A stretch of 64,000 nucleotides of DNA from Coriobacteriales bacterium (GCA_050943615.1 JBMNPN010000002.1:224-64223), one strand, 5' to 3'; counted from the stretch's first letter, positions 43,548-64,000 are shown. Numbers and translations: made by a program. The notes: generated from the letters alone by a model not told the origin.

Positions 43548-43825
43548 AATCGCGCACGGGTTCGCAAAACGGCTGGATTGGCGTGAGAACCGCCAGGGCA
43601 TGCGCGATTCCGGGGGGCGCTCGGGGATGCGGGCGTCGCAGGCGCCGCGGCAGAAAATCGCGCACGGGTTCGCAAAACGGCTGGATTTGCGTGAGAACCG
43701 CCAGGGCGTGCGCGATTCCGGGGGGCGCTCGGGGATGCGTGCGCCGCGGCAGTCGCAGCAGAAAATCGCGCACGGGTTCGCGGAATGCTCGAGCGCGCGT
43801 GAAGGCCGGCAGGGCATGCGCGAAT
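43548..43825. repeat. family A cluster 5 (43548, 43656, 43764)
   Basis: Three 62-bp units at exact 108-bp period; the first two are nearly identical. Confidence 0.93.
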
Positions 43826-47213: not shown

Positions 47214-48763
47214 CTGGGCGGCTGGCTGTTTTCATGCGCGTTGCCCTCTTTGTAGGAGAGCAGGCGAATCGAGAACTCAAGGTCGAAGTACTGGTCGTGG
47301 TCACGCAGGTCGATGCCGCAGAGCCGCTCGATTTGCTGGATCCGGTAGCGCATGGTGCTGCGCTGGATGAAGAGGTCCTTTGCGGCGGCCACCTGGTTTC
47401 CGCCATGTTCGAAAAGAGAGGCCAGCGTCTCGCAAAGGGAACTGCCCGTCTCTGCATCGTACTCGAGAATCTTTGCGATGCCGGGGTGCAAAAAGCTGCT
47501 CGGGTCGTCGCTTTGCAGACAGGCCTCGTAGGGAGCATACGAACGGCAATCGGCATAGAGGTGCAGAGCGCGCGTATCCCCGAGTCGCTCTCCAATGAGG
47601 ATCGCCGCGCTCGCCTGACGGTAGAGGTGCATGAGCGCAGAGACGTCATCTTCCGGCTCAGAACACCCCGCGACAAGCGAACGGCTCGCAAGATAGCGCT
47701 CGAGCTTTCTCTCTTCCGCCTCGTCGAGCTGGCCGGTCTCGTTGTTGACGACGACAACGAGCTCCTGCGCCTTCCTGACCGTTTCGCTGCGGGCGACGAT
47801 TGTCCTGAGGTCCGAGGAGAAGGCCGTCTGCTCGTGGCCGTTGAGGAAACGGTGCGGGGAGGAGACGACGATGACGCAGAATGCACGATCGACCTGCAGG
47901 CGGTGGTTGAAGAGATACGCATCGATATCCTGCTGGGACTCGATGTTGCCGAGCAGAATCTCGGAGTAGAGCTTTGAGAGGGCATCGTGCTCGTTCGGCT
48001 CGCGCCGCCGATTGCCGGTAAGGGCGAGGCTTGCAAGGGAGCAGAAGAACCTGAGGCACTGGCTGTCGCCTTCGGTGATGGCGCGGCTCTTCGAGATGAG
48101 GCAGGCGACGGGGGAGTCTGCATCGTTCCTGTTCAAAGAGCAGGCAGACATCGATCTGTCGAACGTCACGAACTCGTCCACGTACCCCTTTTCGGAAAGC
48201 GCCCTGAAAAGACGGGGGATGTCCACTTCGTCTTCCGAGAACCCGAGCGTGTCCACGTAGGTCCTGTCCTTCTGTACCCACAGCGAGTCGGGCATCGTGT
48301 CGCTTTTCGTACTGGCGATGACTTTGAGGTTGCGGTCGATCACGATCAAGGGGTTGCCGAGGAGCTCGTGTGCGGTTTCCACCATGCGCTGCACGGAATG
48401 GGTCTCGCTGAGGTCGTCGAGCAGGCGATCGCCCCAAGACCTGTACCAGCTCAAGACGTTGGAGGCACGTTCGACGATCTGGTCAAGGGAACGCCCGCCG
48501 GTTTCCAGGGAAATCGCGCAAGAGGCGCCCGCGGGCAGCTCATACGGCCCCTCGTGGCAGAGCACCAGGCGCGCAGCGTTGCCGATAGTGGTGACTGCAT
48601 CGTCGTCAGGGCGTGCGAAGGGGGCGGCGTGCTTGGGGAGAACGGCACCGGAGCTGAGACGTACTGCCCGGTCAACGGGAAGCGATGCATCGAAACCGGG
48701 GCCCTTTTCACAGGCAAAGCGCCCGGATAGCCCGTCGAACAGCATTGCCATCGTGACGCGCAT
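47210..48763 (-). CDS. PucR/CdaR-family transcriptional regulator
   Basis: C-terminal LCETLASLFEHGGNQVAAAKDLFIQRSTMRYRIQQIE HTH; AAGGAGG RBS. Confidence 0.9.
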   Translation of the reverse strand: MRVTMAMLFDGLSGRFACEKGPGFDASLPVDRAVRLSSGAVLPKHAAPFARPDDDAVTTIGNAARLVLCHEGPYELPAGASCAISLETGGRSLDQIVERASNVLSWYRSWGDRLLDDLSETHSVQRMVETAHELLGNPLIVIDRNLKVIASTKSDTMPDSLWVQKDRTYVDTLGFSEDEVDIPRLFRALSEKGYVDEFVTFDRSMSACSLNRNDADSPVACLISKSRAITEGDSQCLRFFCSLASLALTGNRRREPNEHDALSKLYSEILLGNIESQQDIDAYLFNHRLQVDRAFCVIVVSSPHRFLNGHEQTAFSSDLRTIVARSETVRKAQELVVVVNNETGQLDEAEERKLERYLASRSLVAGCSEPEDDVSALMHLYRQASAAILIGERLGDTRALHLYADCRSYAPYEACLQSDDPSSFLHPGIAKILEYDAETGSSLCETLASLFEHGGNQVAAAKDLFIQRSTMRYRIQQIERLCGIDLRDHDQYFDLEFSIRLLSYKEGNAHENSQPPS

Positions 48764-48882: not shown

Positions 48883-50325
48883 CTAGATTCGCCAGAACTT
48901 CCAGAGCCACTTGACCTTGCCGACCTGCTTGGACACGTTCTTGTAGAACGTGCGGTAATAGGATTTGACCCGCTTCAAATCTTCTTTGGTGGCACGCTCG
49001 TCGCCGTAGCCTGCGCGCATGTAGGCAAGCGTGACCTGCAGAAAATCGGTTTTTGTGGTGAGGTCGACATACGGCTCGAGCTGGTTGGCAGAGGCGAGCG
49101 CGAACTCCATGGGCGTGAGGCTCTCGGGCTTTCTGATGCCCAGGCGCTTGAAGCGCGTGAGAAGGAACTCGTAAATCCAGATGACTTGTTCTGATACCGG
49201 CTTATCTGCGATTTTCTCCAGCCTGCGCGTTCTCTGGCGCCGTCTGAGCACTATCACGGCGATAATTGCCGCGACGACGAGCGCGATGAGCACGAGGTTG
49301 TGCCAGTCGCTCAAGTTGTAGCCGATAGTCTGGAACTGCTGGTTCCAGTCGCTGCTGTCATATCCGTTCGGGGACTTGCTGGCCTTTTCTTCCTGCGAGG
49401 CGGAAGTGCCGTTCTGCGTCTCCGTGTCTTGCTGGGTGCCGCCCTCGGCGTTTTTGCGGGTGTCGTTTTTCTTGTCCTCGTTGATGTTGCTCGTCTTGAT
49501 ATCGGGGTTGACGATCTCCTTGCGGGAATAGACGCCCGTGTACTCGACGACGGGCCGCTGGTAGTAATCCTGGAAGGGCTTGAAGTTCGGGGTGGAGAGG
49601 TTGAGCCCTGCGATGATTCCAAAGAACACGGCAACGCCCACGAGCAGGCAGATTAGTGCGGTGACAAGCGAAAATCCACATGCCCCGCCAAAGACGGCGC
49701 GCCCGATTCGTTTTGCAGAGTAGACGCTCGCCCGGTAGCGCTGGTTGATATAGCAGGCCCCGCATCCGAGGTAGACGACCAGAGAGGCGAGCACGCCAGG
49801 TTGCGAGCTGATCCAGTCGCGGTAGAAGAACTGGATGACCGCGCAGGCGAGCACGCCCAGGATAAAGAGGATAGCCACACCCCAGGTGCGGCGCGAGAGC
49901 AGGTACGTGACAAGCGGAACGAGGACGAGCACGAGCCCGAAGACGTAATAGTTGCCCTCGACGTCGTTTACCTGCCCGTTGGCAAAGAACGGGGTGCCGG
50001 CAGGTTCGCTTGCACCTAAGAGGGCAAGCACGATTGCCGCCAACACCAAGTAGCAGATTGCGCAGGGCAAGAGCGCCCGCTTCGACCATGCGCCGGCAAA
50101 GAGCACGATGAGGAGCACCGCGCACACCCCAGCCTCGAGCAGTACGTTTCCGCGCAGGTCAGGAGCGCTGTTGAACCCATACGATACCGTGTAGACCAGT
50201 CCCGTCGAGACGATGAGGACCAAGAGGAAATCGAAAACGGAAGAGCGCAAGAAGAGCGAGAGACGCTGCGATTTCTGCCCGTTTTCGCCGCGTGACCGGC
50301 TGCCGTTTCTAACTGCTGCAGGCAT
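48883..50325 (-). CDS. multi-TM protein with C-terminal DUF4129-like domain
   Basis: Same architecture as 14763-16202 (LTPMEFA...YMRAGYG; both end WKFWRI/WRFWRI). Confidence 0.72.
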   Translation of the reverse strand: MPAAVRNGSRSRGENGQKSQRLSLFLRSSVFDFLLVLIVSTGLVYTVSYGFNSAPDLRGNVLLEAGVCAVLLIVLFAGAWSKRALLPCAICYLVLAAIVLALLGASEPAGTPFFANGQVNDVEGNYYVFGLVLVLVPLVTYLLSRRTWGVAILFILGVLACAVIQFFYRDWISSQPGVLASLVVYLGCGACYINQRYRASVYSAKRIGRAVFGGACGFSLVTALICLLVGVAVFFGIIAGLNLSTPNFKPFQDYYQRPVVEYTGVYSRKEIVNPDIKTSNINEDKKNDTRKNAEGGTQQDTETQNGTSASQEEKASKSPNGYDSSDWNQQFQTIGYNLSDWHNLVLIALVVAAIIAVIVLRRRQRTRRLEKIADKPVSEQVIWIYEFLLTRFKRLGIRKPESLTPMEFALASANQLEPYVDLTTKTDFLQVTLAYMRAGYGDERATKEDLKRVKSYYRTFYKNVSKQVGKVKWLWKFWRI

Positions 50326-51686
50326 TACAGGACCGCCCCCTCCAGCTGCTTGGAATCCGAAAGCACGAGGTAGGGGATGTTCGCCCCGTCGAGCTGCCGC
50401 AGGGGCGCAACGTACTTGTCCAGATCGCTTTCCACGAGACGCCTGGGCACAACCGCGATCATAAATGGAGCGCGTCGGCGGCTCTTGAGTCCTAGAAGCG
50501 TGGAGACCGTCTCCGCCGTGATGTTCGCGCTGACCACCACGACGTTGTTCTCGCCCTGCCTCCCGGCTGTCTCGCGGTTGATGAGGTCGAGGGTTTCCCC
50601 GCGGCGATCCTTGTCAATGGACATCTGCGGCATGTCCGCTATGAGCTTTGGCATGTCGTCGGTGCGCCACGTCGTGAGACGGGCAGTCTCTCCGTAGCGG
50701 TTCTTGAAGAGCACTTCGGTGTCGAATCCGCGGCGCTGGGCATAGTGCGCAATGGAAAGCCCCGATTCCACGACGGCATCGTATTCTGCCATGAGCGTCT
50801 CGGCGTCGTCTTCCGGCGCGGTAAAGTCCAAGAACACCGCGACGCCCGGATTCGTGTAGCGCTCGAAGAGCCGCGTGTAGTAGCCGCCGTCGGGCTTTCG
50901 CGAGGAGAGCTTCCAGTGGATGGTCTTCAACGGGTCGCCAGGCGTGTAATCGCGCACGTACGCGTAGTCCATCGAATCGGCGATGATGGACTTTGCCGCC
51001 TGCAACGACTCCGTTTCGGCATCGGACGAAAAGTGGATTTCCGCAATCTCGCGCAGATGGGGCGTGACGAGAACAGACTGTGTGCGGCCGCTTTCGAGCG
51101 TTGCCGTGAAAAGTCCCAGAAAATCGGAGAGCACAATCTTGTCGAGTCCCGCCTGGTACTTGCCGATATGCGAAAAGCGCGTCGCAAAGGGCAGGTCATA
51201 GCGCTCGAAGGGAGTGAGCGTGATGGACGTGCTCGCCTCGCTCGCATTGTTTCCGAACATATCGGAAATGTAGAACACCGGCTCGACGGGAAAACAGAAG
51301 AACGGCGTCTTGTTGTGGAAGTGAATCGTGAAGTGAACTTCGGAGTCTCGAGCGCAATCGCGCAGGTCAGAGTCTTCTTCGAAACTGATTCCGCGTTTCA
51401 AGACGCGCACGTAAAACCAGGAGGCCACGATGGCGAAGACGAGCATGATGAACGGCACCCAGCCAATGGCCGTGGCGTGGTAGTCGTTGCTGCCCACGAG
51501 CAGGGCAAGCGCGCCGCAAAGCACGACGACGACGCTTGTCACGAGAAACTTCAGCACCGGGTGCTTTGAACGCGCCGATGCGTTCTGCGCACGTTTCACG
51601 GCACGCCGACGCTCGCGTTCGCCCTTGCGCTTTTCTCGGCGCTTGCGAAGCTGAAAACCCTGATTTTTGAGACTTACAGTGTCCAT
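50325..51686 (-). CDS. DUF58 domain membrane protein
   Basis: YVRDYTPGDPLKTIHWKLSSR; paralog of 13423-14766. Confidence 0.88.
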   Translation of the reverse strand: MDTVSLKNQGFQLRKRREKRKGERERRRAVKRAQNASARSKHPVLKFLVTSVVVVLCGALALLVGSNDYHATAIGWVPFIMLVFAIVASWFYVRVLKRGISFEEDSDLRDCARDSEVHFTIHFHNKTPFFCFPVEPVFYISDMFGNNASEASTSITLTPFERYDLPFATRFSHIGKYQAGLDKIVLSDFLGLFTATLESGRTQSVLVTPHLREIAEIHFSSDAETESLQAAKSIIADSMDYAYVRDYTPGDPLKTIHWKLSSRKPDGGYYTRLFERYTNPGVAVFLDFTAPEDDAETLMAEYDAVVESGLSIAHYAQRRGFDTEVLFKNRYGETARLTTWRTDDMPKLIADMPQMSIDKDRRGETLDLINRETAGRQGENNVVVVSANITAETVSTLLGLKSRRRAPFMIAVVPRRLVESDLDKYVAPLRQLDGANIPYLVLSDSKQLEGAVL

Positions 51687-51694
51687 GCTCTTGT

Positions 51695-52675
51695 CTAGAC
51701 CGTCGTTCCTTTGAGGTCGGCGGCAGAGACCGTCGGTACGGCGATGGAGTCGAGGATGCTCGCGATGACGCCCTTGCCGTCCTTTCCGTCGATCTTTGCC
51801 TCGTGCGTGAGGATGAGGCGGTGCGCGAGCACGTAGGGCGCAAGGTACTTGATGTCATCGGGGATCACGTAGGAGCGGCCGCGCATCAGCGCGTTGGCGC
51901 GCGCGAGCTCGATTAGTGCGATGGTGCCACGGGGAGACGCGCCGCAGCTGCACTCGTGCGTGGTGCGCGTGGCGCCGACGATCTGCACCGCATAGCGCGC
52001 GATTGCCTCGGAAACGTGCACCTCTTCGGCCATGTTCTGCAGTCGGATGGCATCCTCGCGTGTTGCCACGGCGCGTATCGCCGCCTTCGCCGCCTTGCTC
52101 TCGAGGGCGACCTTCACCTCCTCCTCGGGCAGGGGATAGCCCATGGAGAGCTTGATGAGGAAACGGTCGAGCTGCGCTTCGGGAAGGGGATAGGTGCCGT
52201 ACTGCTCGATGGGGTTCTGCGTGGCGAGCACCATGAAGGGCTCTTTGAGCCGGTGCGTTACGCCGTCGACGGTCACCTGCCGCTCTTCCATCGCCTCGAG
52301 CAATGCGGCCTGGGTCTTTGCCGAGGCGCGGTTGATCTCGTCGATGAGGACGAGGTTGCTCATCACGCCGCCGGGTCGGAACTCGAAGTCATGCGTTTTC
52401 TGGTTGAAGATGGAAAAGCCGGTCACGTCGGAGGGCATGACATCCGGGGTGAACTGCATGCGGTTGAAGTCGCAGTCGATGGTCTTTGCAAAGGCGCGCA
52501 CGAGGGATGTCTTTCCCGTGCCGGGCAGGTCCTCCAAAAGCACATGGCCTTTTGCGATGAACGCCATGACCACAAGCTCGACGGCCTCGCGCTTTCCGAC
52601 GATGACGGTCTCGATGTTGTCCGCAATCTTTTCCAGGGCATCTGCGGCCCTGCCTGCATTTGCTTCGCTAAGCAC
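51695..52675 (-). CDS. MoxR-family AAA+ ATPase
   Basis: EDLPGTGKT, IDEINRA, ATQNPIEQYGTYPL; GTG start overlaps the ATPase TAG. Confidence 0.95.
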   Translation of the reverse strand: MLSEANAGRAADALEKIADNIETVIVGKREAVELVVMAFIAKGHVLLEDLPGTGKTSLVRAFAKTIDCDFNRMQFTPDVMPSDVTGFSIFNQKTHDFEFRPGGVMSNLVLIDEINRASAKTQAALLEAMEERQVTVDGVTHRLKEPFMVLATQNPIEQYGTYPLPEAQLDRFLIKLSMGYPLPEEEVKVALESKAAKAAIRAVATREDAIRLQNMAEEVHVSEAIARYAVQIVGATRTTHECSCGASPRGTIALIELARANALMRGRSYVIPDDIKYLAPYVLAHRLILTHEAKIDGKDGKGVIASILDSIAVPTVSAADLKGTTV

Positions 52676-53475
52676 TAGTCGTCCTCTCCTCCGAATTCCG
52701 GTGCGCACGTGCGCATGATCTCTTGGTTGTCGTGGGTGAATTCCACAAGCTTTACGTTGATGCCATAGGCATCCTGGATGTTCTCTCGAGTGATGATCTC
52801 GAACGCCGAGCCGAACTTCATCGGCTTGTCCTTCATGAAAAGCGCGACATTCGCGCCGGTCATGAAGGCGTGGTCGGGATTGTGCGTGACCATGAGGACG
52901 GCATAGCCGTTCTTTCTCAGATGCCGCACCTTCTCGATGACGCGCACCGCATTGCCGTAGTCGAGCGCGGCAGTTGGCTCGTCCATGATGAGCAGCTGGG
53001 GCTCTTGCGCAAGGGCGCGTGCGAACATGACCATCTGCAGCTCGCCGCCGGAGATGTCGTTGTAGGCAGCCTCGCGCAGGTGCAAGATGCCCATCTCCTC
53101 CATCGCGTTCTCGACGATGTTGTAGTCCTTGCGCGTGGGCTGGCCGTTGAGCGACTTGATCTTGTTCATGCGGCCCATCATGACGACGTCCTTTACCTGG
53201 AAGGGGAAGGGCTGGTCATGGCGCTGGGCAACGTAGGCGATGGAATCGGAAAGGCGCGAGGCCGACCAGCGGGTGATGTCGCTTCCGTCGAGCGTAATCG
53301 ACCCGGAGAACAGCGGGTTCAGGCCGAGGATGGTCTTCACGAGCGTCGTCTTTCCGCAGCCGTTCGGCCCGAGAATGCAGCACACCTCGCCGTCTTGTAC
53401 GGAGAAGTTCACGTTCTTCTGGACCGGATGCTCGGGATCGTAGCCGACCGCTGCATCTCGCACGATGAGCTTCAT
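52675..53475 (-). CDS. FecE/BtuD-type ABC ATPase
   Basis: GPNGCGKT, ISGGELQ, IMDEPT, VTHNP. Confidence 0.93.
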   Translation of the reverse strand: MKLIVRDAAVGYDPEHPVQKNVNFSVQDGEVCCILGPNGCGKTTLVKTILGLNPLFSGSITLDGSDITRWSASRLSDSIAYVAQRHDQPFPFQVKDVVMMGRMNKIKSLNGQPTRKDYNIVENAMEEMGILHLREAAYNDISGGELQMVMFARALAQEPQLLIMDEPTAALDYGNAVRVIEKVRHLRKNGYAVLMVTHNPDHAFMTGANVALFMKDKPMKFGSAFEIITRENIQDAYGINVKLVEFTHDNQEIMRTCAPEFGGEDD

Positions 53476-53484
53476 GGGCCTCAC

Positions 53485-54774
53485 CTACTCCCAACTGCGC
53501 ATGCCGCGCACGACTATGAGGATGAACAGGGGCAGTGCCACGATGGAGACCACCGAGCCGATGGCGATGCCGTCTCCCACAAAGGGGATGCAGTCGGTGA
53601 TGTCGCGGCAGACGAGAAGGAAAATCATGCCACAGCAGATGCTTCCGGTGAACTGCTTGGTGAACTCCGTTCCAAAGAGGCTCCGCGCCAAGAACGGCGC
53701 GAGCAGCGTGACCATCCCGACGACGCCGGTATGGATCTGGGCGGCGAGCATCATGATGGCGCCGCAGATGAGCGCGACGATGCGCAGGGCGTTGTAGTTG
53801 ATGCCGAGGAGCTTGACGTCTTGCTCGTCGAAGGAAAGTGCGTTCATCTTGAAGCGCAGCAGGTAGACAGGGAGGATCGAGAGCACGGACACGATTCCGA
53901 GCACGATCCAGGAAGTCGCCGAGGTATCGACCGTGAGCATCTGGGAGATGGTGTAGAAGGTCTGGTAGTCCTGCTCGTCCATGACGAAAAGCGTCATGTA
54001 CTGGACCACAAAGCCGAGCAACTGTCCCAAGATCATGCCGATGAGCACGGTCGAGAGGATATCGAAGGGCTTGCCGCGTCTCGAGAGCTTCTTGCCGCAT
54101 ACCATGACCAGGACAAGGATCGCCGCCCCGATGCCGTAGCAGAGCAGGTAGCGCATGTTCACCATGTCGGTCGCCGCGCTCCCGTAGATTGCGACGAGCA
54201 GCATGACGCCGAACTGGATGCCAGACGAGGCGCCGAGCATGTTGGGCCCGGCGATGGGGTTCTTGAACACGTTCTGGTACAGCATGCCGGAGATGGAGAG
54301 CAGCGCTGCGCAGATGAGGGTGATGCCCACGACCTGCAGTTTGTCGAAGACCGCCCAGTAGCAGGGGCAGTTTTCGAGCAGCCATTCCTTTGAGCGCGGG
54401 TCGAAGGCGTGCGTCACGTCGGCAATGGCGTTGTAAGCGTGCAGGTAGAGCGCGTCCCACACCTGAAGCGGCGTGTAAAACCAGTAGGGCCCGCTATAGG
54501 AATAGTCCTGCCCCGCTGCCCCCACGCAGCACAACGAGAAAAAGGAGATGACGATGAGAAGCCCTATGGAGATGGCCACGCGGATGGCGGACCTGTCGTG
54601 TTCGGCGCGGTAGAGCTTGTTGGTCTCGCGCATGGAGAGCTTGCGGCTGACGGTGCCGACGCGCATGGCACGGCTCCGCGAGATGAACGAGCCGTTGCGC
54701 AGCCGCGCGATGTCGGTTGCCGTGTAGCTCGATGCAGAGGCGTGCGTATCGGAATCGCTCTTCTTAGATGCCAT
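53485..54774 (-). CDS. FecCD/BtuC-family ABC permease
   Basis: LSISGMLYQNVFKNPIAGPNMLG, MNALSFDEQDVKLLG; paralog of 10130-11389. Confidence 0.9.
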   Translation of the reverse strand: MASKKSDSDTHASASSYTATDIARLRNGSFISRSRAMRVGTVSRKLSMRETNKLYRAEHDRSAIRVAISIGLLIVISFFSLCCVGAAGQDYSYSGPYWFYTPLQVWDALYLHAYNAIADVTHAFDPRSKEWLLENCPCYWAVFDKLQVVGITLICAALLSISGMLYQNVFKNPIAGPNMLGASSGIQFGVMLLVAIYGSAATDMVNMRYLLCYGIGAAILVLVMVCGKKLSRRGKPFDILSTVLIGMILGQLLGFVVQYMTLFVMDEQDYQTFYTISQMLTVDTSATSWIVLGIVSVLSILPVYLLRFKMNALSFDEQDVKLLGINYNALRIVALICGAIMMLAAQIHTGVVGMVTLLAPFLARSLFGTEFTKQFTGSICCGMIFLLVCRDITDCIPFVGDGIAIGSVVSIVALPLFILIVVRGMRSWE

Positions 54775-56068
54775 TGCGCTCACCTCCCTTGTTGCGCAAG
54801 GCGACGACGAGGAACACGATGGCGCCGAAGATGGAGATGTACATTCCGCTCATGGTCTCGTAGTCGGACCCGAACAGCGCCGAGACGAGCACGTAGGCCC
54901 CGAGCACGAAGATCGCGCCGAGCACAAGCGCTGCTGGCAGCAGGTACTTGAAGTTCGGTCCCACGATGCGGCGCGAGAGGTGGGGGATGAGAAATCCCAC
55001 GAAGCCGACCGCTCCGGCAAAGGAGACGATGATCGCCGTGAGCAGGGTGCAGACGGTGATGGTTATGATGCGCATCTTGCGGGTCTCCACGCCGAGGGTG
55101 CGGGCCTCCTCTTCGCCCAGGCCCAGCACCATCATCTTCTGGCGGTAGTGCATGATGACCGCAAAGCAAAGTGCCAATGGGGCCAACAGCGCGAGCACGT
55201 CGATCCAGGAGTAGGAGCGGTAAAAACTTGATATCTGGAGCTGCGTCAGCAGCTGCGCTTTCACGCCCTCGGGGTCAAGCGTCACGTAGTAATAGCGCAC
55301 GGTGTTCACGATGGCCCCGCACACGCCGCCGACAACCTGGCCGACGATGATGATGACGATGTTCGACTTGGAGAAGCGCCCCAGAAAGCGCATGCACAAG
55401 AGCACGAGCACGACGACCACGGCGCAGCCAACAAACTGCAGGAGCGAAAGCCCGTAGGTCGCGAGCAGGTCGTCTGCGCTCGATATGCCTCCCGACGAGG
55501 TGGACGAAGTTCCGCTGACGAGCGCGCTGACCCAGCCTATCTGGTCTCCCTCATCGCTCACGAAAAAGACGATCCAGATGACCATGCCAAGCGAGGCCCC
55601 GCTCATGACGCCCAGAGTCGAGGGCGAGACGAGCGCGTTTCGGAAACTTCCCTGATACACCGCTCCGCACAGGGCAAGGCCCGCACCGGAGAGGCAGACG
55701 ACGATGTAGCGGAAGAACGTGTTGCTGAAGATCGCGGACCCGGTCTGATTGCCCGTGAAAAACGCGATGAGCCCGTTGACGTTGTCCGAGAGCCCCTGAA
55801 TGAACCAGGAGAGGTTGTAGCCCTGGCCATAGCCGGTGCTGTTGAGGCCCTCGTTGAGCATGTTCTTGGGGATGAGGAGCCCTAAGAAGAAAAGGACGAC
55901 GAGCACGATGCACATGATGAACACGCGTTGCGCACGCGGGTCGATGCGGTGCCCCTCGTCCCGAGATTGCGCGTAGACGTTCTGGCCGTCGTCTTCCCCG
56001 AAGCTGATGTTCTCCGAGGTCGGGGCGTCAAGGCGCTCTGGTTGCCTGTCTTTGCTGCGCTTGGGCAT
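54764..56068 (-). CDS. FecCD/BtuC-family ABC permease
   Basis: GAGLALCGAVYQGSFRNALVSPSTLG, LGEEEARTLG, GAVGFVGFLIPH; paralog of 8839-10146. Confidence 0.9.
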   Translation of the reverse strand: MPKRSKDRQPERLDAPTSENISFGEDDGQNVYAQSRDEGHRIDPRAQRVFIMCIVLVVLFFLGLLIPKNMLNEGLNSTGYGQGYNLSWFIQGLSDNVNGLIAFFTGNQTGSAIFSNTFFRYIVVCLSGAGLALCGAVYQGSFRNALVSPSTLGVMSGASLGMVIWIVFFVSDEGDQIGWVSALVSGTSSTSSGGISSADDLLATYGLSLLQFVGCAVVVVLVLLCMRFLGRFSKSNIVIIIVGQVVGGVCGAIVNTVRYYYVTLDPEGVKAQLLTQLQISSFYRSYSWIDVLALLAPLALCFAVIMHYRQKMMVLGLGEEEARTLGVETRKMRIITITVCTLLTAIIVSFAGAVGFVGFLIPHLSRRIVGPNFKYLLPAALVLGAIFVLGAYVLVSALFGSDYETMSGMYISIFGAIVFLVVALRNKGGERNGI

Positions 56069-56072
56069 GGTT

Positions 56073-59000
56073 TTAGAAGCTTACCGGCTCTTTGTCGGGC
56101 AGGGGGTCCGTCTCGTCTTCCGGCGCATCCTTGCGCTGGCGCTTGATGAAGAACCACACGATGCGCGCTGCAAGTGCCGCGAACAAGGCGAGCACCGCGG
56201 CAAAGCCGATGAGGTTCCCGATCCCAGTATCGTTGTCCGTGCCGCCTGCGCTCTCGCCCGTGTTGCCGACACTGGTGCCTGTGGGGGTGCCAGTTCCGGT
56301 TGTGCCTTGCGAGGCAGCGACCGGGGACGGCTTGGTAGCATTTGAGCTCTTGGGAACCGTGGGCTTGACAGCGGTGGGCGTTGCCGTTGGAGGCGTGGGC
56401 TTCTCCGTGTTCACCTTGACTGTCGATGCGGCATTGTCAGTGGCCTTGAGGGCGATCTCGAGGTTCCCGGTGCCATCTTCGACATAACCCAGGGAAGTAA
56501 TCTTGAAGCTGAGCTTTGCCGCGTTTTCCGAGACGGCAGAGTAATTGATCCCCGAGCTTCCCAACCAGTACGAGCGCGTCTTGTCCTCACGCGCGCCCTT
56601 TCGGACCTTTGCCGTGATCTTTATCGTCCCGAAATTGTCGTAGACCTCTATCGTCTTGCCATTGAGCTCATAGGTGAGGTGCACCTCGTAGATGGCCTTG
56701 TTCTTGTTGGCGTCGAGCAGCGGCTCGTAGCCCATGCGCACGGCCTTGTTGCGGATAACCGAATCGGCCGTGCTCACCGTGGATATCGTGAGGCGAAGCT
56801 TCTTTGCCTCGTCGAGGTCCTCGGCGGTGATATGGGCCTTGCTCACGTCTACGGACAGTTCGCTTTTGGCGCGCTTGTCCATCTTGACCTTGATGTCGCT
56901 TCTCGTGACGCCATCGCTCGAATCATCGCCGAACACGGCATAGAGCGTGAGCTCGTCGCCCGATGTTGGGGCGACGGCAGAGAGCTTTGCCGCGTTGACG
57001 CGCGCGATGTCGGGCGTGGTGGCGTTCTCCTTGGTCGACCAGCCGAGGAAGCGCAGTTTTTTCGATTTGTCCTTGGGGTTGCTCACGCCGCAGGATGTGA
57101 GAACGTCGTTGAAGTCCATCGTGGTCTTGACGGCGCCATTGGTCTTTGCGTACTGTTTGCCGTCCACTACGAAGGTGACGGTCAGCGTGCGGTCCTGCTC
57201 AGTGTACTTGCCATAGTAGATGTTCTTCCCGCTCTCAAATGAGCTGGAATCCGCGACTGCCGGCAGCGTACCGTCTTGCCAGTATGCTTCCTGGTCGGTC
57301 AGGCGCGGTCCCCATCCGGTGAAGGTATAGACCTTCTCGCTCGTTTTGACGACCGTGCCGCTGCTCGCGTAGTTTCTCGCAAGCGCGTTGGTATCGGCGT
57401 TGTACGAGGAGGTGAGGCCTTCCGTGACGGTCCATGATCCATCCTCGTTGCGGTAGCGGAACGTCACCTCTATTTCCTTTGCCGTCTTCTTGAACAGCGG
57501 GGTGAAGGTCATGTCCGAGGTCACGGTGGGGAGCTCGTCGAGCGTCTTGCCGTCTTGCTGCCAGGCCTCGAACTCGTACTCGTAGCCTTTCTCCTCATCG
57601 ATTTTGCTGGGGTCGTCCTTGCCGGTGGTGGGATCGACTTCTCCGCCTGCGGCTTCGTAGGAAGCCTTGGCGCCGTCGTCTGCGGCGTAGGCAAGAATGC
57701 GCCCGTCGGTGTCGAAGCGCACGAGGTGCTGCCCCGATTTCACTTCAACATAGACGGCGCTGAATTGCGCGGCCTTGTTCTGCTCGACGCCTGAAATATC
57801 GGTGTTGATGCGAATCTCGTCCTTCAGGGCACTCGCATCGAACTTGACTCCACCGCATTGCCAGCCGACAAAGCGATAGGTGGCTCCGTCTTGCGTGTAG
57901 CTTTCTGCCGTGCTGGGGAGCTCGACGCCTGCCTCGGAGAGCGTCTTTCCCAGGGTGACTTCGGCAGCCGCCGGGTCCTCGGCATCGGTGCCATCTCCGT
58001 TTTTCAGGCCGGTGAAGCTAACTGAAATCTGCGGTGTGCCCCACAGTTCGGCCGCCCCTTCATCGTCTACGGTGACCCCGTTGCCCTTCAGGTCCACGGT
58101 GTCGTCGGTCGCCTCGAGCTGCGAGCCGCCTACGGTGACCTCCGAAGACTCGGATACATGCGCTGCGCCCCCGGTAGGGGTCTTGCTGTAGACAACGCTC
58201 GAAGAGTCGTTGCCCGGCGTGGCTATCTCGCCTGTAGAATCCGGGTTGATGTAGAGCTTCAGGTTGAGCGTGCCGTATTTGACTGTAATCGCGTCGCTGC
58301 CGTGCTCTTCTGATAGGTCGGCGCTCTCATCTGCCGTCCAGGTGGATGCACCTTGAGCATCGAGCGCGTACGCGTCTCCCCTGGCGCAGGTCGCGTTCAC
58401 ATGTCCGGAGACCTCCACGTTCCCGGAAAACCTGCTCGACGAGGCGATCCCCACAGCTTCGGTGGCGATGGAGTAGCCCGATTGGACGAAGAAGTACTTG
58501 GGCACGATGCTGTCGAGCTTTCCGCGCGTGTCGGTTGTCTGCGGGTCGGAATAGACCCAGACCGCAACGCCGCTGTCGAGCACGAGGGGCGTGGCATAGT
58601 AGATTTCGGTGTCGTTCGAGCTCGAGTTGGTAGCGCTCGCCTCTTCGGAATCGTCGAACTTTGCCTCTTCCTTGAACTTTTCGCAGATCTCTTTGTAGAA
58701 ATCGGAGTTCTCGTCGGGGAATATCTGCACGAGGTTGCTTGCGCTGTAGGTCGTGTCGTTGCTCGTGGTGTCGACGGTCTGCCAACGTCCGCGCGAGACG
58801 CACGTGGCGTTGTTTACGGCCTCGACAGTGCTGTCGCTTGAAACGTCCACCTTGGCAGATTCTGAACTTGCAGTGGTGTAGATGCCCTCGACGCGGTTTG
58901 CACCGTAGGTACTCGCGTCGTTTTCCGTGGCGCTTGCCGTGAGAGAGGCGCTATCGCTGAGGACGGCAGAACCCGAGCTCACGTAGACACCGTAGAGGGC

Positions 59001-59582
59001 GGGCGTGGGCAGGTTCGAAGAGGTTGACGATCCCGTGTACGCGACCTTGAGCGTTGCGCTCTCGAGCTCGAAGGTGCCCCCTCCGCTCACGGAGACGCCG
59101 CAATAGGCGCCAGCGGTCCCGCTCGTCTCTTTGGAAGAACCGACGGTGACCGAGAGGGTGCCGCCGCTGATGCTGCTTGTCAGGGTGAAGGTGCCGCTCC
59201 CGCTAAAGGAGATGGCGCCGGACTTGCCCGATGCGGCGAGGGCGGAGGACAACGTGTGCCCCTTCAAGTCCAATGTGAGCGATTTCGCCGTGCTGATAGG
59301 GGCCGTGAGGCTCGCATCGGCCTCGAGCTCGATGGTGTCGCCGTCTGAAGCGGCGTCGAGCAGCGTGTCAAAACTCGTGAACTCGGATCGTTCGGTGCCG
59401 TGGACGAGCGTGAGCTCGCAGGTGTCCGTGTCGCTTTCCGCAAATGCCAGCCCCGTCCCCAAGGGATTTTCCCCATACGATGCGAATACACCTGGAGCTG
59501 CCTGGAACAAGACGAGCGAGGCACACAAAACGCCCGAGACGATGGGCTTTGCTGCGCGCTTGAAAGCAAACGAATGAAACAT
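56073..59582 (-). CDS. large membrane-anchored surface protein (beta-helix-like N-terminus, Listeria/Bacteroides-type repeats, Pro/Thr stalk, C-terminal TM)
   Basis: Signal peptide; FTSFDTLLDAA.DGDTIEL...LTLDLKGHTL; repeated Y.F.GW motifs; TM followed by KRQRK. Confidence 0.8.
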   Translation of the reverse strand: MFHSFAFKRAAKPIVSGVLCASLVLFQAAPGVFASYGENPLGTGLAFAESDTDTCELTLVHGTERSEFTSFDTLLDAASDGDTIELEADASLTAPISTAKSLTLDLKGHTLSSALAASGKSGAISFSGSGTFTLTSSISGGTLSVTVGSSKETSGTAGAYCGVSVSGGGTFELESATLKVAYTGSSTSSNLPTPALYGVYVSSGSAVLSDSASLTASATENDASTYGANRVEGIYTTASSESAKVDVSSDSTVEAVNNATCVSRGRWQTVDTTSNDTTYSASNLVQIFPDENSDFYKEICEKFKEEAKFDDSEEASATNSSSNDTEIYYATPLVLDSGVAVWVYSDPQTTDTRGKLDSIVPKYFFVQSGYSIATEAVGIASSSRFSGNVEVSGHVNATCARGDAYALDAQGASTWTADESADLSEEHGSDAITVKYGTLNLKLYINPDSTGEIATPGNDSSSVVYSKTPTGGAAHVSESSEVTVGGSQLEATDDTVDLKGNGVTVDDEGAAELWGTPQISVSFTGLKNGDGTDAEDPAAAEVTLGKTLSEAGVELPSTAESYTQDGATYRFVGWQCGGVKFDASALKDEIRINTDISGVEQNKAAQFSAVYVEVKSGQHLVRFDTDGRILAYAADDGAKASYEAAGGEVDPTTGKDDPSKIDEEKGYEYEFEAWQQDGKTLDELPTVTSDMTFTPLFKKTAKEIEVTFRYRNEDGSWTVTEGLTSSYNADTNALARNYASSGTVVKTSEKVYTFTGWGPRLTDQEAYWQDGTLPAVADSSSFESGKNIYYGKYTEQDRTLTVTFVVDGKQYAKTNGAVKTTMDFNDVLTSCGVSNPKDKSKKLRFLGWSTKENATTPDIARVNAAKLSAVAPTSGDELTLYAVFGDDSSDGVTRSDIKVKMDKRAKSELSVDVSKAHITAEDLDEAKKLRLTISTVSTADSVIRNKAVRMGYEPLLDANKNKAIYEVHLTYELNGKTIEVYDNFGTIKITAKVRKGAREDKTRSYWLGSSGINYSAVSENAAKLSFKITSLGYVEDGTGNLEIALKATDNAASTVKVNTEKPTPPTATPTAVKPTVPKSSNATKPSPVAASQGTTGTGTPTGTSVGNTGESAGGTDNDTGIGNLIGFAAVLALFAALAARIVWFFIKRQRKDAPEDETDPLPDKEPVSF

Positions 59583-60018
59583 GGAGCGACGGAACCTTAC
59601 TGACTATCGTGATTTTTCAGAGGCTACATTAGCATGAAAATAATGCGCAACGAATATATAAATCAATGGAGATAATGCGCATAAAAATATTATTTACATA
59701 TTCATATATATCGAAAAATATATACATCATGCATCGTGACGAGTCAGCTCTATATTGTGAACATTCTGAAAATATTGATGCGGATAGCACGCTTTCCAAC
59801 AATCGGGGGGAACGGGCTGATAATTGGAATACGCATGTTCAGAGTGGCACTCTGCGTGTATTGGGTAAGCGAATGACATCATGAATGCAGACCAATCCAG
59901 AATGCTGAAAGAATACGTTTTCAGAGAAAGAAATTTATTCTCCCCTATATGTCCTTTAAGCATATGAATCACAAAGAAAATAGATTTTTATATATACAAT
60001 CTCATTCCGAGATATTAT

Positions 60019-61902
60019 ATGCTCCAGGCTATGCTGTACCGAGGGGATAATTCTAAGGTAAAGAAATTGCTCGTGACGCTGCTGGTCCTAGTGACCGCGG
60101 CCTCGCTTTGCATGCTCGGAGGATGCAAGTACACCGACATCTTGACCGAGCACATCGAAGACCCCGTCAACGGCACGGTCAATGAGAACATGGACCCGAT
60201 CTACAAGGACGTCGACAACGCGAAGAAGGACTCCACGCGCGTTGCCACGCACCGCAACACCTCAAAGACCCTCGACAAGCAGACCGAGGAGCTTCCTGTC
60301 TACGATAAGAACGCTCCGGATAATGGGCCGACTGACCAGCGTATTCAAAGCGATGACAGCTCCCATACGGAAACTGCGACACAAGGCACGAAGGAGTCCA
60401 AGAACAAAAAGGGCCATACCAAGAAAAACGACAAGGACAAGAAGAAGGACAAGCAATCGGGCGACAAGTCGGACAAGGACTCGCAGAGCAAGAGCGATAC
60501 AAACCAGACCAGCGATGACACCGACGACGATGGTAAGAGCTCTTCTTCGAGCAACGGGACGTCCGGTGGCAATGGCGGCTCGGCGAAGGTCTACGACGAC
60601 AGCACCTACAAAGACCTCCCCGAGAACGTCCAGACCGTTGCGGCGGCGGGGCAATACGCATCGCTCGTGCAAATGTTCTCCGGGGAGACGGGCGCGCATC
60701 TCGTGGCTGCTGACAACGCCTGGCTTTCGCGCGTCAAGTCCCTCGGTGCATTCGACGGCGAGGGCATAGAGGATATCGCCGTGGGATGGTCGGGAGACAC
60801 CGATCAGAACAGCAGCGGCTCTGCGGATAACGCGAAGGTCTCGGCAATCATCAAGGCAAAGCCCGATGTGGTGCTAATAGACGGCAACGACGACGACTCG
60901 AACCTCTCGAAATCCGCCATGGACAAGCTCGTGGACGCCGGCATAAGCGTCGTCACGATGCCAAAGCTCGGCTCGCTGTTCACGAGCGACGAGGACATTG
61001 TCGATGCGGCACGTATCGTGGGCTCGCTGCTCTCGGACTCGACGAATGGGTATTCCACCAAGATGGCCAAGAGCTATATCTCCTTCCATGACCAGCTCGT
61101 GAGCGACGATGCCGATTACTACTACAAGCCCGGCTATGTGCACAAGTACCAGGATGGCGAGTCCACGACGGGTTCTGCCAAGCAGGGCGCGTGCACCACG
61201 GTTTTCGTGGACCATATCGCCTCGACGACCACGTCGACCACAAAGGCCTCGCGCAATTACTCTGCTTACGGCGACCCGCTCTATCTGGATGGCGAGACCC
61301 TGGACACGAGCGACGGAGTCGGCATGTCGATCTCCGGCTCAGGATATGCGCTGATGGACTATTACTTCCAGCTTGGCGGGGTGGTCAACAACTCCTATCC
61401 TCGTGTCAAGCCGTCGAACAGTGCCTCCTACGCGATTGTCGCGGGACAGGATGCGCGCGGTATTCTGAGCGTAGACGCTGCCAACCGCGATACGCCCTCG
61501 GCGCTCTGGTATGCCCCCTCGAGCGATTCCGCGGTCATCACCGTTGGAGACGGCACCTATCCTGCCATCGTGGCCCGTGACTCCGATATCGCAAAGACGA
61601 TACAGGCCTCGGCGGATAAGACGAACGGTCTCTATAACGTCGGTCAGAAATACGAAATCTACGTGATGCCCTCGGGGCTTTCCGGCAACTGGGCCGATGG
61701 CACGGTCGAGAGCTTCCTCACGATGTACTGGGCATCCGTGTGCCTGACCTCGAGCTCTCCGTCGGGGTCGAGTCTGGATGGCCTTATGGATTACATCAAG
61801 AGCTTTTACTCGACTTACTACCGTGTGGATGCCTCGAAGGTCGCCACGCACTTCAATCAGTCAATTTACAACCCCCTGAAAGCGGCATGTCCGCGTTCTT
61901 AA
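60019..61902 (+). CDS. lipoprotein with Lys/Asp/Ser linker and SBP-like domain
   Basis: Lipobox LGGC then KYTDIL.E; VAAAGQYASLVQM, KAKPDVVLI, YVMPSGLSGNW; paralog of 16599-18740. Confidence 0.72.
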   Translation: MLQAMLYRGDNSKVKKLLVTLLVLVTAASLCMLGGCKYTDILTEHIEDPVNGTVNENMDPIYKDVDNAKKDSTRVATHRNTSKTLDKQTEELPVYDKNAPDNGPTDQRIQSDDSSHTETATQGTKESKNKKGHTKKNDKDKKKDKQSGDKSDKDSQSKSDTNQTSDDTDDDGKSSSSSNGTSGGNGGSAKVYDDSTYKDLPENVQTVAAAGQYASLVQMFSGETGAHLVAADNAWLSRVKSLGAFDGEGIEDIAVGWSGDTDQNSSGSADNAKVSAIIKAKPDVVLIDGNDDDSNLSKSAMDKLVDAGISVVTMPKLGSLFTSDEDIVDAARIVGSLLSDSTNGYSTKMAKSYISFHDQLVSDDADYYYKPGYVHKYQDGESTTGSAKQGACTTVFVDHIASTTTSTTKASRNYSAYGDPLYLDGETLDTSDGVGMSISGSGYALMDYYFQLGGVVNNSYPRVKPSNSASYAIVAGQDARGILSVDAANRDTPSALWYAPSSDSAVITVGDGTYPAIVARDSDIAKTIQASADKTNGLYNVGQKYEIYVMPSGLSGNWADGTVESFLTMYWASVCLTSSSPSGSSLDGLMDYIKSFYSTYYRVDASKVATHFNQSIYNPLKAACPRS

Positions 61903-61983
61903 TTCAATGCAAGCCCAGATGAAAGGAGGCTGCGCCCATTAGATCTTGAGAGTTAGAAAGTACGTTTGTGAGGAAGGTAATGC

Positions 61984-64000
61984 ATGAGTAAGTTCAAGAA
62001 ACACCATTTTGGCCGCAAAGCGGTATCCGTTGCGACTGCGGGCGCTTTCGTCTTCATGATGGCAGCCCCGTTTGGCGTGGTCCAGCCTGCAGAAGCTGAG
62101 AGCATGAGCGCGGACGGGTACGTGACCGCCGCTGCTTCGCGTGCTGCGCAGACCGCCCCCGAGATTCTCGGCCTGACGGGCGTGGAGGAGACGAGCAGCA
62201 GCACGGGCGCTGCCGGTTGGGGCAACCAAGACTGGAGTGCGCCGAAGTACTATATCTTTGGTGACACGACCTACAACACGGCGGCCAATCCCTATATGGT
62301 GAACGCGGTTTCCGTACAGCAGGGAACCGATAGTGACGCCTCGCCGACCATTGTCCTGAATACGGCACGCAATAGTGGCGGCAAAGGCCCGATGGCGGCG
62401 CTGGCAACCTATGGCACCGATGATACCGATGACGATGTATGGGGCGCGAAACCCGATGTGGTCATTGGCGTAAGCACGGGCAGCGGTACCGCTGACTATG
62501 ACTCGGCGGACTACATTGGCAGCGACCTGTATAACTCTGGCTATCATCCCAAGGGCGTCGCGTACTACAGCGGTGAGAACTCCAATATCATCAAGGAAAT
62601 GTACGCAATCGCCGAAGCGGCTGACCAGGTTGTCGCAGACAGCAACGGAACCAAGAAGCTCCGCTATGGCAGCGCGACCGAGATTGCCACGAACTATGAG
62701 AAGTACGTCCGTGGCACGCAGGGCCTGATCATGCGCGCCATCAACACCAACAAGGTCGAGAAGAAGACCATCGCGCTTGTGAATGCCTACAATTCCGATG
62801 CGGGCACCTACACGCTGACGAAGCCCGGCGACACCCTGAGCGGTGCTGCGGCAGGCACCTCGACGGTCGACCACTACCTGGACATGGTCAACGTCGTCAC
62901 GAACAACCTCGCGACCAAGCTGAACAAGACCACGGTCACCGCAGACGAGCTTTCGCAGGCTGATATCATCCTCGTCGGCGGCAACAGCGTCGACTCCTCT
63001 GAGGTCGCCAGCCACATCCCCTCGACCCTGCTTTCCAAGACCTACTACACCACGGACTACAACGCCGGTGCAATCTACGATGTTATGCACAACGCGGTTG
63101 ACAACGTCCAGAACGCGGGCCGTCTGCTCGGCTTTGTCTATCCCGAGGTCGTCGACCAAGATGACTGGATCTGCTACTACTACAGCAAGTTCTACCATGT
63201 GAAGACGGACAAGCTTGCCGAGGTCATCGACAAGGCTATGGACGGCGTGCGCAACTACGATGCAACGGATGCTGCGAACTACCTGCAGTGGGACGAGTCC
63301 GATGCGAGCACGTATAACGAGAGCTCGGTTCAGAGCAAGCTCGATGAGGGCGTTGCCTATTACGCTACCCAGACCACGAGCGATGCGGATGCTCTGACGA
63401 GCAATATCACGAGCGGATCGGACCTTGCCGAAGGCGTCAACGAGATGCTCGCCGAGCTTGCTGCCATGACCAACCCCACCCAGGCAGATATCGATGCGGT
63501 GAAGGCTGCGTACAAAAAGCTCACCGACGCCCAGAAGGCGCTCGTCACCAATTACGACTCGATCATTGTTGCTGCCCAGGCCAAGGTGGATGCTGCTAAT
63601 TCCAGCACTACCACTACTACCACGGGTGCAAAGAAGGGCACGACCAAGAAGATCTCTGCCGGTACCGTCAAGGTGACGAGCAACGGCACGGGCTCCAAGG
63701 CGACTGTCGCCTTCACCAAGGCGAAGAACAAGAAGTCCATCACCGTGCCTGCGACCGTCAAGATCAACGGCAAGACCTATCAGGTGACCTCCATCAGCAA
63801 GAACGCGTTCAAGTCTGCCAAGAAGGTGCGCACGGTCACCGTTGGCAAGAACGTCAAGAAGATCGCCGCGAAGGCCTTCAATGGCTCCAAGGTCAACAAG
63901 GTCATTCTCAAGACCAAGAAGCTCACCAAGAAGTCCGTCAAGGGCTCGCTGAAGGGCTCCAAGGTCAAGACCGTCAAGGTCAACGTCGGCAAGACCAAGG
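61984..64000 (+). CDS. secreted protein: SBP-like N-terminal region plus BspA-type LRR and Lys-rich tail (truncated by window end; absent from the ORF track)
   Basis: Frame read from ATG 61984 (GGAAGG RBS): MSKFKKHHFGRKAVSVATAGAFVFMMAAPFG... to ...VTSISKNAFKSAKK...KKLTKKSVKGSLKGSKVKTVKV with no stop seen; the reverse-strand shadow ORFs in the track mirror it. Confidence 0.85.
   Translation, partial: MSKFKKHHFGRKAVSVATAGAFVFMMAAPFGVVQPAEAESMSADGYVTAAASRAAQTAPEILGLTGVEETSSSTGAAGWGNQDWSAPKYYIFGDTTYNTAANPYMVNAVSVQQGTDSDASPTIVLNTARNSGGKGPMAALATYGTDDTDDDVWGAKPDVVIGVSTGSGTADYDSADYIGSDLYNSGYHPKGVAYYSGENSNIIKEMYAIAEAADQVVADSNGTKKLRYGSATEIATNYEKYVRGTQGLIMRAINTNKVEKKTIALVNAYNSDAGTYTLTKPGDTLSGAAAGTSTVDHYLDMVNVVTNNLATKLNKTTVTADELSQADIILVGGNSVDSSEVASHIPSTLLSKTYYTTDYNAGAIYDVMHNAVDNVQNAGRLLGFVYPEVVDQDDWICYYYSKFYHVKTDKLAEVIDKAMDGVRNYDATDAANYLQWDESDASTYNESSVQSKLDEGVAYYATQTTSDADALTSNITSGSDLAEGVNEMLAELAAMTNPTQADIDAVKAAYKKLTDAQKALVTNYDSIIVAAQAKVDAANSSTTTTTTGAKKGTTKKISAGTVKVTSNGTGSKATVAFTKAKNKKSITVPATVKINGKTYQVTSISKNAFKSAKKVRTVTVGKNVKKIAAKAFNGSKVNKVILKTKKLTKKSVKGSLKGSKVKTVKVNVGKTK

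Follow-up and report, generated by a model that had tools for sequence, protein, structure and literature searches.

Why should the genes of an ATP-binding cassette (ABC) importer and those of a MoxR-type AAA+ ATPase share a single run of genes? The question is raised by a locus, cassette 2 (48883-64000), within a 64,000-nucleotide (nt) stretch of DNA from a Coriobacteriales bacterium, referred to below as the window and from whose start all coordinates are counted. We propose, with a probability of roughly 0.68, that cassette 2 encodes a surface-assisted type II (FecCD/BtuCD-class) importer functionally coupled to a membrane-anchored MoxR module. Seven tightly packed minus-strand genes (48883-59582), all intact open reading frames (ORFs), read from 59582 to 48883 as large surface protein, permease A, permease B, ABC ATPase, MoxR, DUF58 protein and DUF4129 protein, and a divergent plus-strand pair encodes a lipoprotein substrate-binding protein (SBP) and then a secreted fusion of an SBP-like domain to leucine-rich repeats (SBP-LRR). 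Neighbouring genes in this run are either 0-8 nt apart or overlap by 1-20 nt; such tight spacing implies that they are co-transcribed and translationally coupled, and the run looks like a single operon. The operon and the divergent SBP genes are present and intact where the original prediction had placed them; its word 'complete' applies to the seven operon genes and the lipoprotein SBP gene, the second plus-strand gene (ATG at 61984) being truncated by the window end.

Conservation of the kit in and beyond the window

The recurrence of this gene set, referred to below as the kit, had been taken as a sign of a real functional module, and this was supported well beyond the window, where the same gene order was found on about 30 independent contigs whose credible labels are Coriobacteriia or Eggerthellaceae. 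The DUF4129 protein of cassette 2 has 84 homologues, the few named ones coming from Eggerthellaceae or Coriobacteriales. As the wide alignment of this family was too diverse for a genome scan, a narrower one was used to scan one genome per GTDB species, which yielded 26 loci. The best of these reached 54-56% identity, indicating that the window's own species is absent from the GTDB representatives scanned; it is present in two Joint Genome Institute (JGI) metagenomes and one SRA run. Wherever a related contig has enough flanking sequence, it shows the order surface protein-permease A-permease B-ABC-MoxR-DUF58-DUF4129; the SBP and SBP-fusion genes usually come next, in the same orientation, and among the flanking ORFs of all loci no non-core family recurs as widely as the kit's own. 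All loci from the scan and the related contigs are of the cassette 2 type. Many 'cleanbin' records among them (L005-L030) are labelled E. coli, Akkermansia, Agathobacter, Prevotella or Methanomethylophilaceae; because their contig GC contents (57-68%) do not fit the named taxa, these labels were treated as mis-binning, and the implausibly labelled metagenome-assembled genomes (MAGs) probably contain mis-binned contigs.

Neighbour-joining trees of the six core proteins, built from 17 loci and both window copies, agreed with one another, and incongruence among the components was not seen. In all six trees cassette 2 groups with L006, L007 and L014, the same sub-clades recur, and cassette 1, together with L032, lies outside every cassette-2-type orthologue; the pairwise distance matrices are correlated at r = 0.84-0.98 (0.72-0.96 without the two outliers). 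The congruent trees and correlated distances imply that the six core genes evolved as a unit, and the outside position of cassette 1 implies that the duplication occurred before the sampled lineages radiated. Selection on cassette 2 is purifying (dN/dS, the ratio of nonsynonymous to synonymous substitution rates, of about 0.1), as determined against a sister-species contig (L039; 0.14 for DUF4129 and 0.10 for DUF58, approximate values since dS is near saturation). Neither cassette is decaying, as judged by ORFs of full length compared with orthologues, by the low dN/dS of cassette 2 and by a third-position GC content (GC3) in the host range. Overall, cassette 2 is the conserved, class-wide version of the kit.

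Cassette 1 represents an old and rare paralogue that has a regulator of its own. It consists of a gene for a LuxR-type membrane regulator (7578-8759), the six core genes (permease A, 8794-10146; permease B, 10079-11389; ABC ATPase, about 11386-12174; MoxR, 12343-13419; DUF58, 13423-14766; DUF4129, 14763-16202), a lipoprotein SBP gene (16551-18740), a surface/LRR protein gene (18789-23576; 1595 aa) and, after the latter, a second ABC ATPase gene (23622-24593); the membrane LuxR gene, a third SBP-like gene and the second ATPase gene are its extras. The second ATPase is 46% identical to the cassette 2 ATPase versus 39% to the core ATPase of its own cassette. The separation of the cassettes, previously given as about 25 kb, is 24 kb when measured from this gene to 48883, or 33 kb from core to core.

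Each core protein finds its best match in its counterpart in the other cassette, with protein identities of 58% for MoxR, 51% for the ABC ATPase, 41% for permease B, 36% for DUF58, 34% for permease A and 27% for DUF4129 (33% for the SBP, in a partial match). For both permeases the cross-cassette match far exceeds that to the partner permease of the same cassette. The one-to-one paralogy claimed for every component therefore holds for the six core genes (27-58%) and fails for the large surface proteins, which share ~80 aa at 32% identity; the LRR and basic, lysine-rich tail of the cassette 1 surface protein instead resembles the tail of the cassette 2 SBP-LRR protein (46% over 136 aa). The same six-gene order stands in both cassettes and the outer genes are rearranged, not merely duplicated, in agreement with the original prediction. 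Recent duplication or gene conversion was rejected, as DNA identity between the cassettes is at best 68-76%, with one 51-nt stretch of 86%. Recent horizontal acquisition of either cassette is likewise unsupported, the GC3 of both lying within the range of the housekeeping genes between them.

A word-index protein search returned only three distant relatives of the cassette 1 DUF4129 protein (23-26% identity) and the JGI metagenome scan returned no close one, suggesting that cassette 1 is rare or fast-evolving. These relatives (L031, L032 and L033) carry FecCD-FecCD-(ABC)-(MoxR)-DUF58-DUF4129 genes with SBP and surface partners in shuffled order, and the ABC/MoxR linkage persists where DUF4129 is only 23-26% identical. 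Upstream sequences add a further link within cassette 1: the palindrome ATCACC-N7-GGTGAT occurs at three sites in the window (8783-8801, 12227-12245 and 16287-16305), versus 0.12 expected by chance, and each site precedes one of the three cassette 1 transcription units, implying their co-regulation. The LuxR-type regulator and these palindromes are likely to form a regulator-operator set. As had been reported, no LuxR gene lies in 48883-64000 and no such palindrome in cassette 2, which a scan of the window confirmed.

These findings bear on the view that an ordinary iron-chelate ABC operon simply lies beside an ordinary MoxR-DUF58-TgpA-like operon and was duplicated jointly with it. Triads of MoxR, DUF58 and a membrane protein are generally known to be widespread without transporters, and in cassette 1 a palindrome-bearing intergenic gap separates the ABC from the MoxR gene. 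However, the linkage is maintained in about 30 contigs and down to DUF4129 identities of 23-26% despite changes of order, the MoxR start in cassette 2 shares 1 nt with the ABC stop, the core-gene trees are congruent, and one type of palindrome precedes all three cassette 1 units, implying their co-regulation. We consider mere juxtaposition very improbable.

Importer, MoxR module and their proposed coupling

The transporter half of cassette 2 shows the features of iron-chelate type II importers, in the permeases and the ATPase and, by structure, in the SBP. Permease A (54764-56068, minus strand; 434 aa; FecCD, 6.6e-52) and permease B (53485-54783, minus strand; 432 aa; FecCD, 7e-39) both match their family far above the 26.5-bit Pfam cut-off (PF01032). 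In both, the N-terminus is extended by 40-70 aa and the first outside loop is long, the extension of permease B being cytoplasmic and ~68 aa in length; here and below, topologies were deduced from hydropathy and charge (positive-inside pattern). The ABC ATPase (52675-53484, minus strand; 269 aa; ABC_tran, 8e-32) contains in its translation the Walker A, signature and Walker B motifs (GPNGCGKTT, LSGGE and LLIMDEPT), and its best NCBIfam models are ABC ATPases for haem, corrinoids and Fe-dicitrate, all matched below the equivalog cut-offs.

The lipoprotein SBP (60019-61902, plus strand; 627 aa) is built of a lipobox (LGGC, with a cysteine conserved in homologues), a low-complexity linker of ~150 aa and a 443-aa domain (60571-61899) predicted to be a class III SBP domain, whereas the SBP-LRR protein (61984-64000, plus strand, cut by the window end) combines a signal peptide, an SBP-like domain of ~430 aa (62086-63435), a linker, BspA-type LRRs (LRR_5, 7e-6 by Pfam) and a lysine-rich tail. 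In neither protein was a class III SBP domain detected by Pfam, NCBIfam or a PDB sequence search; a profile of the N-terminal domain of SBP-LRR matched nothing in PDB sequences or Pfam, and hhalign of the two SBP families gave a probability of 0.6%, indicating that their relation is visible only in structure. Three homologues of the lipoprotein SBP have a recorded PF01497 match, and one is named an Fe3+-hydroxamate SBP by JGI.

AlphaFold (AF2) models built from alignments reached a predicted local distance difference test score (pLDDT) of 86.9 and a predicted template modelling score (pTM) of 0.89 for the lipoprotein SBP domain, and 91.6 and 0.92 for the N-terminal 450 residues of SBP-LRR. Foldseek searches of the PDB with both models retrieved class III binding proteins almost exclusively, many with probability 1.0. 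Among the neighbours of the lipoprotein SBP are a Veillonella SBP (4ovk, 9e-11), a Eubacterium iron SBP (4hn9), MolA, YiuA, BtuF and BhuT, and among those of SBP-LRR are YiuA (8e-7), a Veillonella FepB, SirA, HtsA, FhuD2, PiaA and MhuP; the best 50 matches of the latter are all class III SBPs, nearly all of them binders of siderophores, haem, iron or nickel. The template modelling (TM) scores, at 0.5-0.64 on target length, are moderate because both domains are ~100-140 residues larger than the solved ones. The two proteins had been called SBPs from the sequence, and their predicted structures agree, showing the class III fold of iron-chelate and haem importers.

The domain family of SBP-LRR comprises 198 clusters at 50% identity (proteins of 430-1390 aa), and in related loci the tail joined to this second SBP domain is of SLH, DUF5648 or Ig-like type instead of LRRs. 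The varied tails suggest a binding domain displayed on interchangeable wall tethers, a pattern that fits a surface-displayed capture protein. We know of no earlier description of whole SBP domains on interchangeable cell-wall tethers, and a class III SBP subfamily of this size (198 clusters) that current sequence models do not see is likewise apparently undescribed.

With respect to the ligand, the structural neighbours of the modelled domains favour a ferric siderophore or haem, and the presence of two different permeases is typical of siderophore systems. The context offers hints as well: ferrochelatase and cytochromes c lie beside L003, and FeoB and MoeA beside L001. MoeA directly adjoins the cassette in three lineages (12629-13951 in L001, from ~11345 on in L012 and from ~15243 on in L017). 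Could the same architecture then serve molybdate or tungstate (as in MolBC-A), a corrinoid or another molybdoenzyme-related cofactor? Besides this MoeA adjacency, MolA (3psa) ranks fourth among the structural neighbours found for the lipoprotein SBP, BtuF is also listed, and a molybdopterin oxidoreductase lies 2 kb downstream of the cassette in the window. Yet most structural neighbours of both SBPs bind Fe-siderophores or haem, MolBC and BtuCD are generally known to have one permease gene where the kit has two, a search for a cobalamin riboswitch was negative, surface capture proteins would hardly be required for a free oxyanion, and molybdenum enzymes crowd Eggerthellaceae genomes, making adjacency to them weak evidence. 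Such a ligand therefore appears decidedly unlikely. Identity of the transporter with MolBC-A itself was rejected, the permeases being two distinct proteins and MolA just one of many structural neighbours. That the two cassettes bind different ligands, as had been suggested, is a guess that the ~33% partial identity of their SBPs would allow but does not demonstrate.

The large surface protein (56073-59582, minus strand; 1169 aa), encoded by the first operon gene, has an N-terminal signal peptide, F-x-GW (Listeria-Bacteroides type) repeats, a Pro/Thr-rich stalk and, at the C-terminus, one membrane anchor with a basic tail. It has no Pfam, NCBIfam or PDB sequence match; its orthologues, always the first operon gene in related loci, show weak or faint Flg_new matches. 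No NEAT or HtaA (CR) domain was found by Pfam or NCBIfam in this protein or in SBP-LRR, LRR_5 being the sole match, and no LPXTG motif was detected.

The constant position of this gene at the head of the operon could indicate that the triad of MoxR, DUF58 and DUF4129 serves surface-protein biogenesis by folding, anchoring or remodelling a giant adhesin, the ABC transporter being a secondary passenger or a supplier. LRRs and Listeria-Bacteroides repeats are typical of adhesins, and such a role has been proposed for the Bifidobacterium PFNA cluster, which in another actinobacterial group links MoxR, DUF58 and a membrane protein of transglutaminase-like type to an FN3 protein of the surface. On the other hand, L031 and L032 retain the ABC and MoxR core with different or reduced surface partners, the cassette 1 surface protein is encoded in a separate transcription unit behind its own palindrome, and an import function is indicated by the two dedicated SBP-fold proteins and the pair of FecCD permeases. 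We regard a biogenesis role as unlikely. For the import function we also counted that each cassette has two distinct permeases, each with its counterpart in the other cassette.

The MoxR-type ATPase (51695-52675, minus strand; 326 aa) matches AAA_3 (1.2e-63) and AAA_lid_2 (5.4e-23), and much more weakly bpMoxR (5e-15); ChlD and cobaltochelatase models of NCBIfam give weak matches. It has no membrane segment. Its start is more likely GTG 52675 than that of a longer ORF reaching 52708: GGAGGAG lies upstream, 1 nt of the start is shared with the ABC stop, and the 326-aa form is called on other contigs of the same organism.

The DUF58 protein (50325-51686, minus strand; 453 aa), whose gene start overlaps the neighbouring gene by 1 nt, matches its Pfam family at 23.9 bits versus a cut-off of 23.4 (2.7e-5), and its cassette 1 counterpart, although 36% identical to it, has no Pfam match. 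A strongly basic N-terminus is followed by a two-helix membrane hairpin and a cytoplasmic domain resembling the von Willebrand factor A (vWA) fold. After the first beta strand, where vWA domains have DxSxS, all orthologues carry D-F-x-x-P or a similar motif (DFTAP, DFYGP), in 50325-51686 as in the orthologues L001-L033; the position of the metal ion-dependent adhesion site (MIDAS) was placed by eye. The MIDAS serines of this ABC-linked DUF58 subfamily seem to be lost, in which case the protein would be an adaptor rather than a metal binder, and the motif, read by eye, suggests a metal-free adaptor version of the vWA domain.

The DUF4129 protein (48883-50325, minus strand; 480 aa) was assigned from its Pfam match (3.6e-5), its homologues and its topology; it scores 24.2 bits, just below the cut-off of 24.8, and that of cassette 1 scores 28.3 bits. 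It resembles TgpA. In the DUF4129 proteins of the two cassettes no Transglut_core match was found by Pfam, which apart from DUF4129 gave a weak TgpA_N match (18.5 versus a cut-off of 30). The predicted topology has about eight transmembrane helices, a polar loop of ~100 aa on the outside and, at the C-terminus, a basic domain in the cytoplasm. Both proteins end in W(K/R)FWRI, as had been noted (YIWRFWRI in cassette 1, WLWKFWRI in cassette 2), and the FWRI ending is kept across the family of 84 homologues. By topology, the DUF58 domain and the DUF4129 C-terminal domain are both cytoplasmic, on the same side as MoxR.

In the coupled importer that we propose, the wall-spanning 1169-aa protein and the secreted SBP-LRR protein would capture a metal-chelate-class ligand at the cell surface, most likely one of ferric siderophore or haem type, and hand it to the membrane-tethered lipoprotein SBP, which, judging from its fold, would dock on the permease A/B heterodimer, with import driven by the ABC ATPase, whose domains are recognisable. 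At the cytoplasmic face, a MoxR hexamer may be recruited by the hairpin-anchored DUF58 adaptor and the 8-helix DUF4129 scaffold, and its use of ATP would assemble, reset or gate the complex of transporter and surface protein. MoxR ATPases with vWA partners are remodelling or metal-insertion chaperones (NorQ/D, CoxD/E, CbbQ/O and chelatases), and these precedents make handling of the imported chelate a second option; that the module processes the imported metal chelate would be the less likely course.

Several points weigh against this proposal. Conserved adjacency proves linkage rather than mechanism; physical contact between the MoxR module and the transporter is presumed, and the ligand is proposed from structural neighbours and context. 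The surface protein has no ligand-binding domain recognisable in Pfam, NCBIfam or PDB sequences, and neither a riboswitch nor a Fur, IdeR, Zur or MntR-like box above shuffled sequences was found in the control region. In addition, the Pfam scores of DUF58 and DUF4129 stand at or barely below their cut-offs, with the cassette 1 DUF58 unmatched, and many of the related MAG contigs bear taxon labels that cannot be relied on.

A bolder version, which we put forward tentatively as possible rather than probable, would make MoxR, DUF58 and DUF4129 an obligatory second motor of a Gram-positive type II importer: a membrane-bound AAA+ machine, docked via the invariant FWRI ending of the DUF4129 protein, that powers or resets the hand-over of ligand from the SBP domains displayed on the wall to the permeases, or strips the imported chelate of its metal. 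If true, the widespread but functionally obscure triads of the MoxR-DUF58-TgpA-like type would thereby gain a first defined client.

Control regions and genomic surroundings

The divergent control region of cassette 2 (59583-60018; 436 nt) is AT-rich (36% GC) and contains two copies of ATAATGCGCA (59640-59649 and 59672-59681) spaced 32 nt apart, which may constitute an operator. The motif was not found upstream of SBP genes at other loci, and no k-mer is common to more than three of the sequences when the region is compared with those upstream of the SBP gene at ten orthologous loci. A search of 59450-62050 against Rfam gave no match at E <= 1, and no cobalamin riboswitch was found. The best matches to Fur, IdeR/DtxR, Zur and MntR-like boxes did not exceed those in shuffled sequences, in scans with consensuses that may not be those of the host lineage.

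Downstream of cassette 2, and on its operon's strand, lie a gene for a PucR-type regulator (47210-48763, HTH_30) and that for the molybdopterin oxidoreductase (44281-46707), the latter at a distance of 2 kb; both were excluded from the kit because neither accompanies the cassette elsewhere. The window begins with an rRNA operon (510-5416), has a GC content of ~60% throughout, and no tRNA gene was found in it. A 67-nt element whose ends are inverted (AAAATCGCGCA...TGCGCGATTTT) is present in eight copies, spread over three intergenic stretches around leuS (37692-37758, 38097-38163, four in 40353-40814 and two in 43545-43719); it looks like a REP/MITE-like (repetitive extragenic palindrome/miniature inverted-repeat transposable element) family, which includes a 108-nt tandem at 43546-43761. 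Two ORFs among the housekeeping genes, 24813-26189 (458 aa) and 38429-39472 (347 aa), have C-terminal halves that appear alike by eye (YDGAVHFD and YNGAQHEQ).

Comparison with known systems

FecBCDE, FhuDBC, FepBDGC, FeuABC, BtuCDF and HmuTUV share with the kit FecCD permeases, an ABC_tran ATPase and SBPs of the Peripla_BP_2 fold. Two different permease genes, as in the kit, are found in FecCD, FepDG and FeuBC, whereas BtuCDF and HmuTUV are single-permease forms. The SBP domains of iron-chelate importers measure ~300 aa, in contrast to the ~430-443 aa of those of the kit, which the Pfam model misses, and the kit further differs in its extended permeases and in having one SBP fused to LRRs. We know of no characterised iron-chelate importer operon that includes MoxR, DUF58 and DUF4129 genes, whereas the kit always does.

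The combination of surface protein(s), lipoprotein SBP, FecCD permease and ATPase is shared with the haem relays, namely Isd (S. aureus), HtaA/HtaB-HmuTUV (Corynebacterium), Shr/Shp-HtsABC (S. pyogenes), IlsA (B. cereus) and HupY/LrrG (streptococci). HtaA has a C-terminal membrane anchor like that of the kit's surface protein, and IlsA, an LRR surface protein in a haem/iron relay (PMC2777315), has LRRs in common with the kit, as do Shr and HupY. The cassette 1 surface protein matches the HupY model of NCBIfam weakly. In contrast to these relays, the kit has no detected NEAT or HtaA-type domain, LPXTG motif or iron box, tethers a whole SBP domain at the surface and includes a MoxR module for which the relays have no counterpart.

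The order MoxR, DUF58, polytopic TgpA-like/DUF4129 protein matches that of the MoxR-proper operons (Bacteroides Bat, mycobacterial moxR1, Pseudomonas tgpA). Unlike these, the kit has a polar loop in place of a transglutaminase core, has seemingly lost the DUF58 MIDAS serines, has no BatA/BatB-type vWA or tetratricopeptide-repeat (TPR) partners and is joined to an ABC importer. The ChlI/ChlD, CobS/CobT, NorQ/NorD and CoxD/CoxE pairs likewise combine a MoxR-related AAA+ protein with a vWA-type adaptor in a metal-cofactor context; these chelatase and NorQD-type pairs are soluble systems with an intact MIDAS, and their target is an enzyme or a tetrapyrrole, whereas in the kit both MoxR partners are anchored in the membrane and a catalytic large subunit is missing. 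Defence-type MoxR systems of the MoxR-vWA-beta-propeller kind were excluded, as no propeller is present and PADLOC returned only a marginal TRIP13 match.

In the literature searched, the nearest published cluster joining a surface protein to MoxR-DUF58-Tgm is the Bifidobacterium PFNA cluster, pkb2-fn3-aaa_atp-duf58-tgm (PMC8430577). Like the kit, it is an actinobacterial gut-commensal cluster that links a large surface protein, MoxR, DUF58 and a transglutaminase-like membrane protein; unlike it, PFNA has neither an ABC transporter nor SBPs, while the kit has no Ser/Thr kinase, FN3 domain or transglutaminase core (kinase and FN3 domains had no Pfam match in any protein of either cassette). No description of an ABC importer linked to MoxR/DUF58/DUF4129 was found in that literature, the coverage of which is incomplete. 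The kit hence joins known parts, an iron-chelate importer and a MoxR triad, in a linkage that is apparently undescribed, although this is no proof of its novelty.

Eggerthellaceae-type gut bacteria rely on metal cofactors for drug and diet metabolism, and the kit bears on the poorly understood question of how such carriers acquire metals. To our knowledge, MoxR-DUF58-TgpA-like triads rank with the most widespread gene triads of bacteria for which no client is known; here one is tied to a transporter, whose activity is measurable, in two copies in the same genome, which makes its role directly testable.

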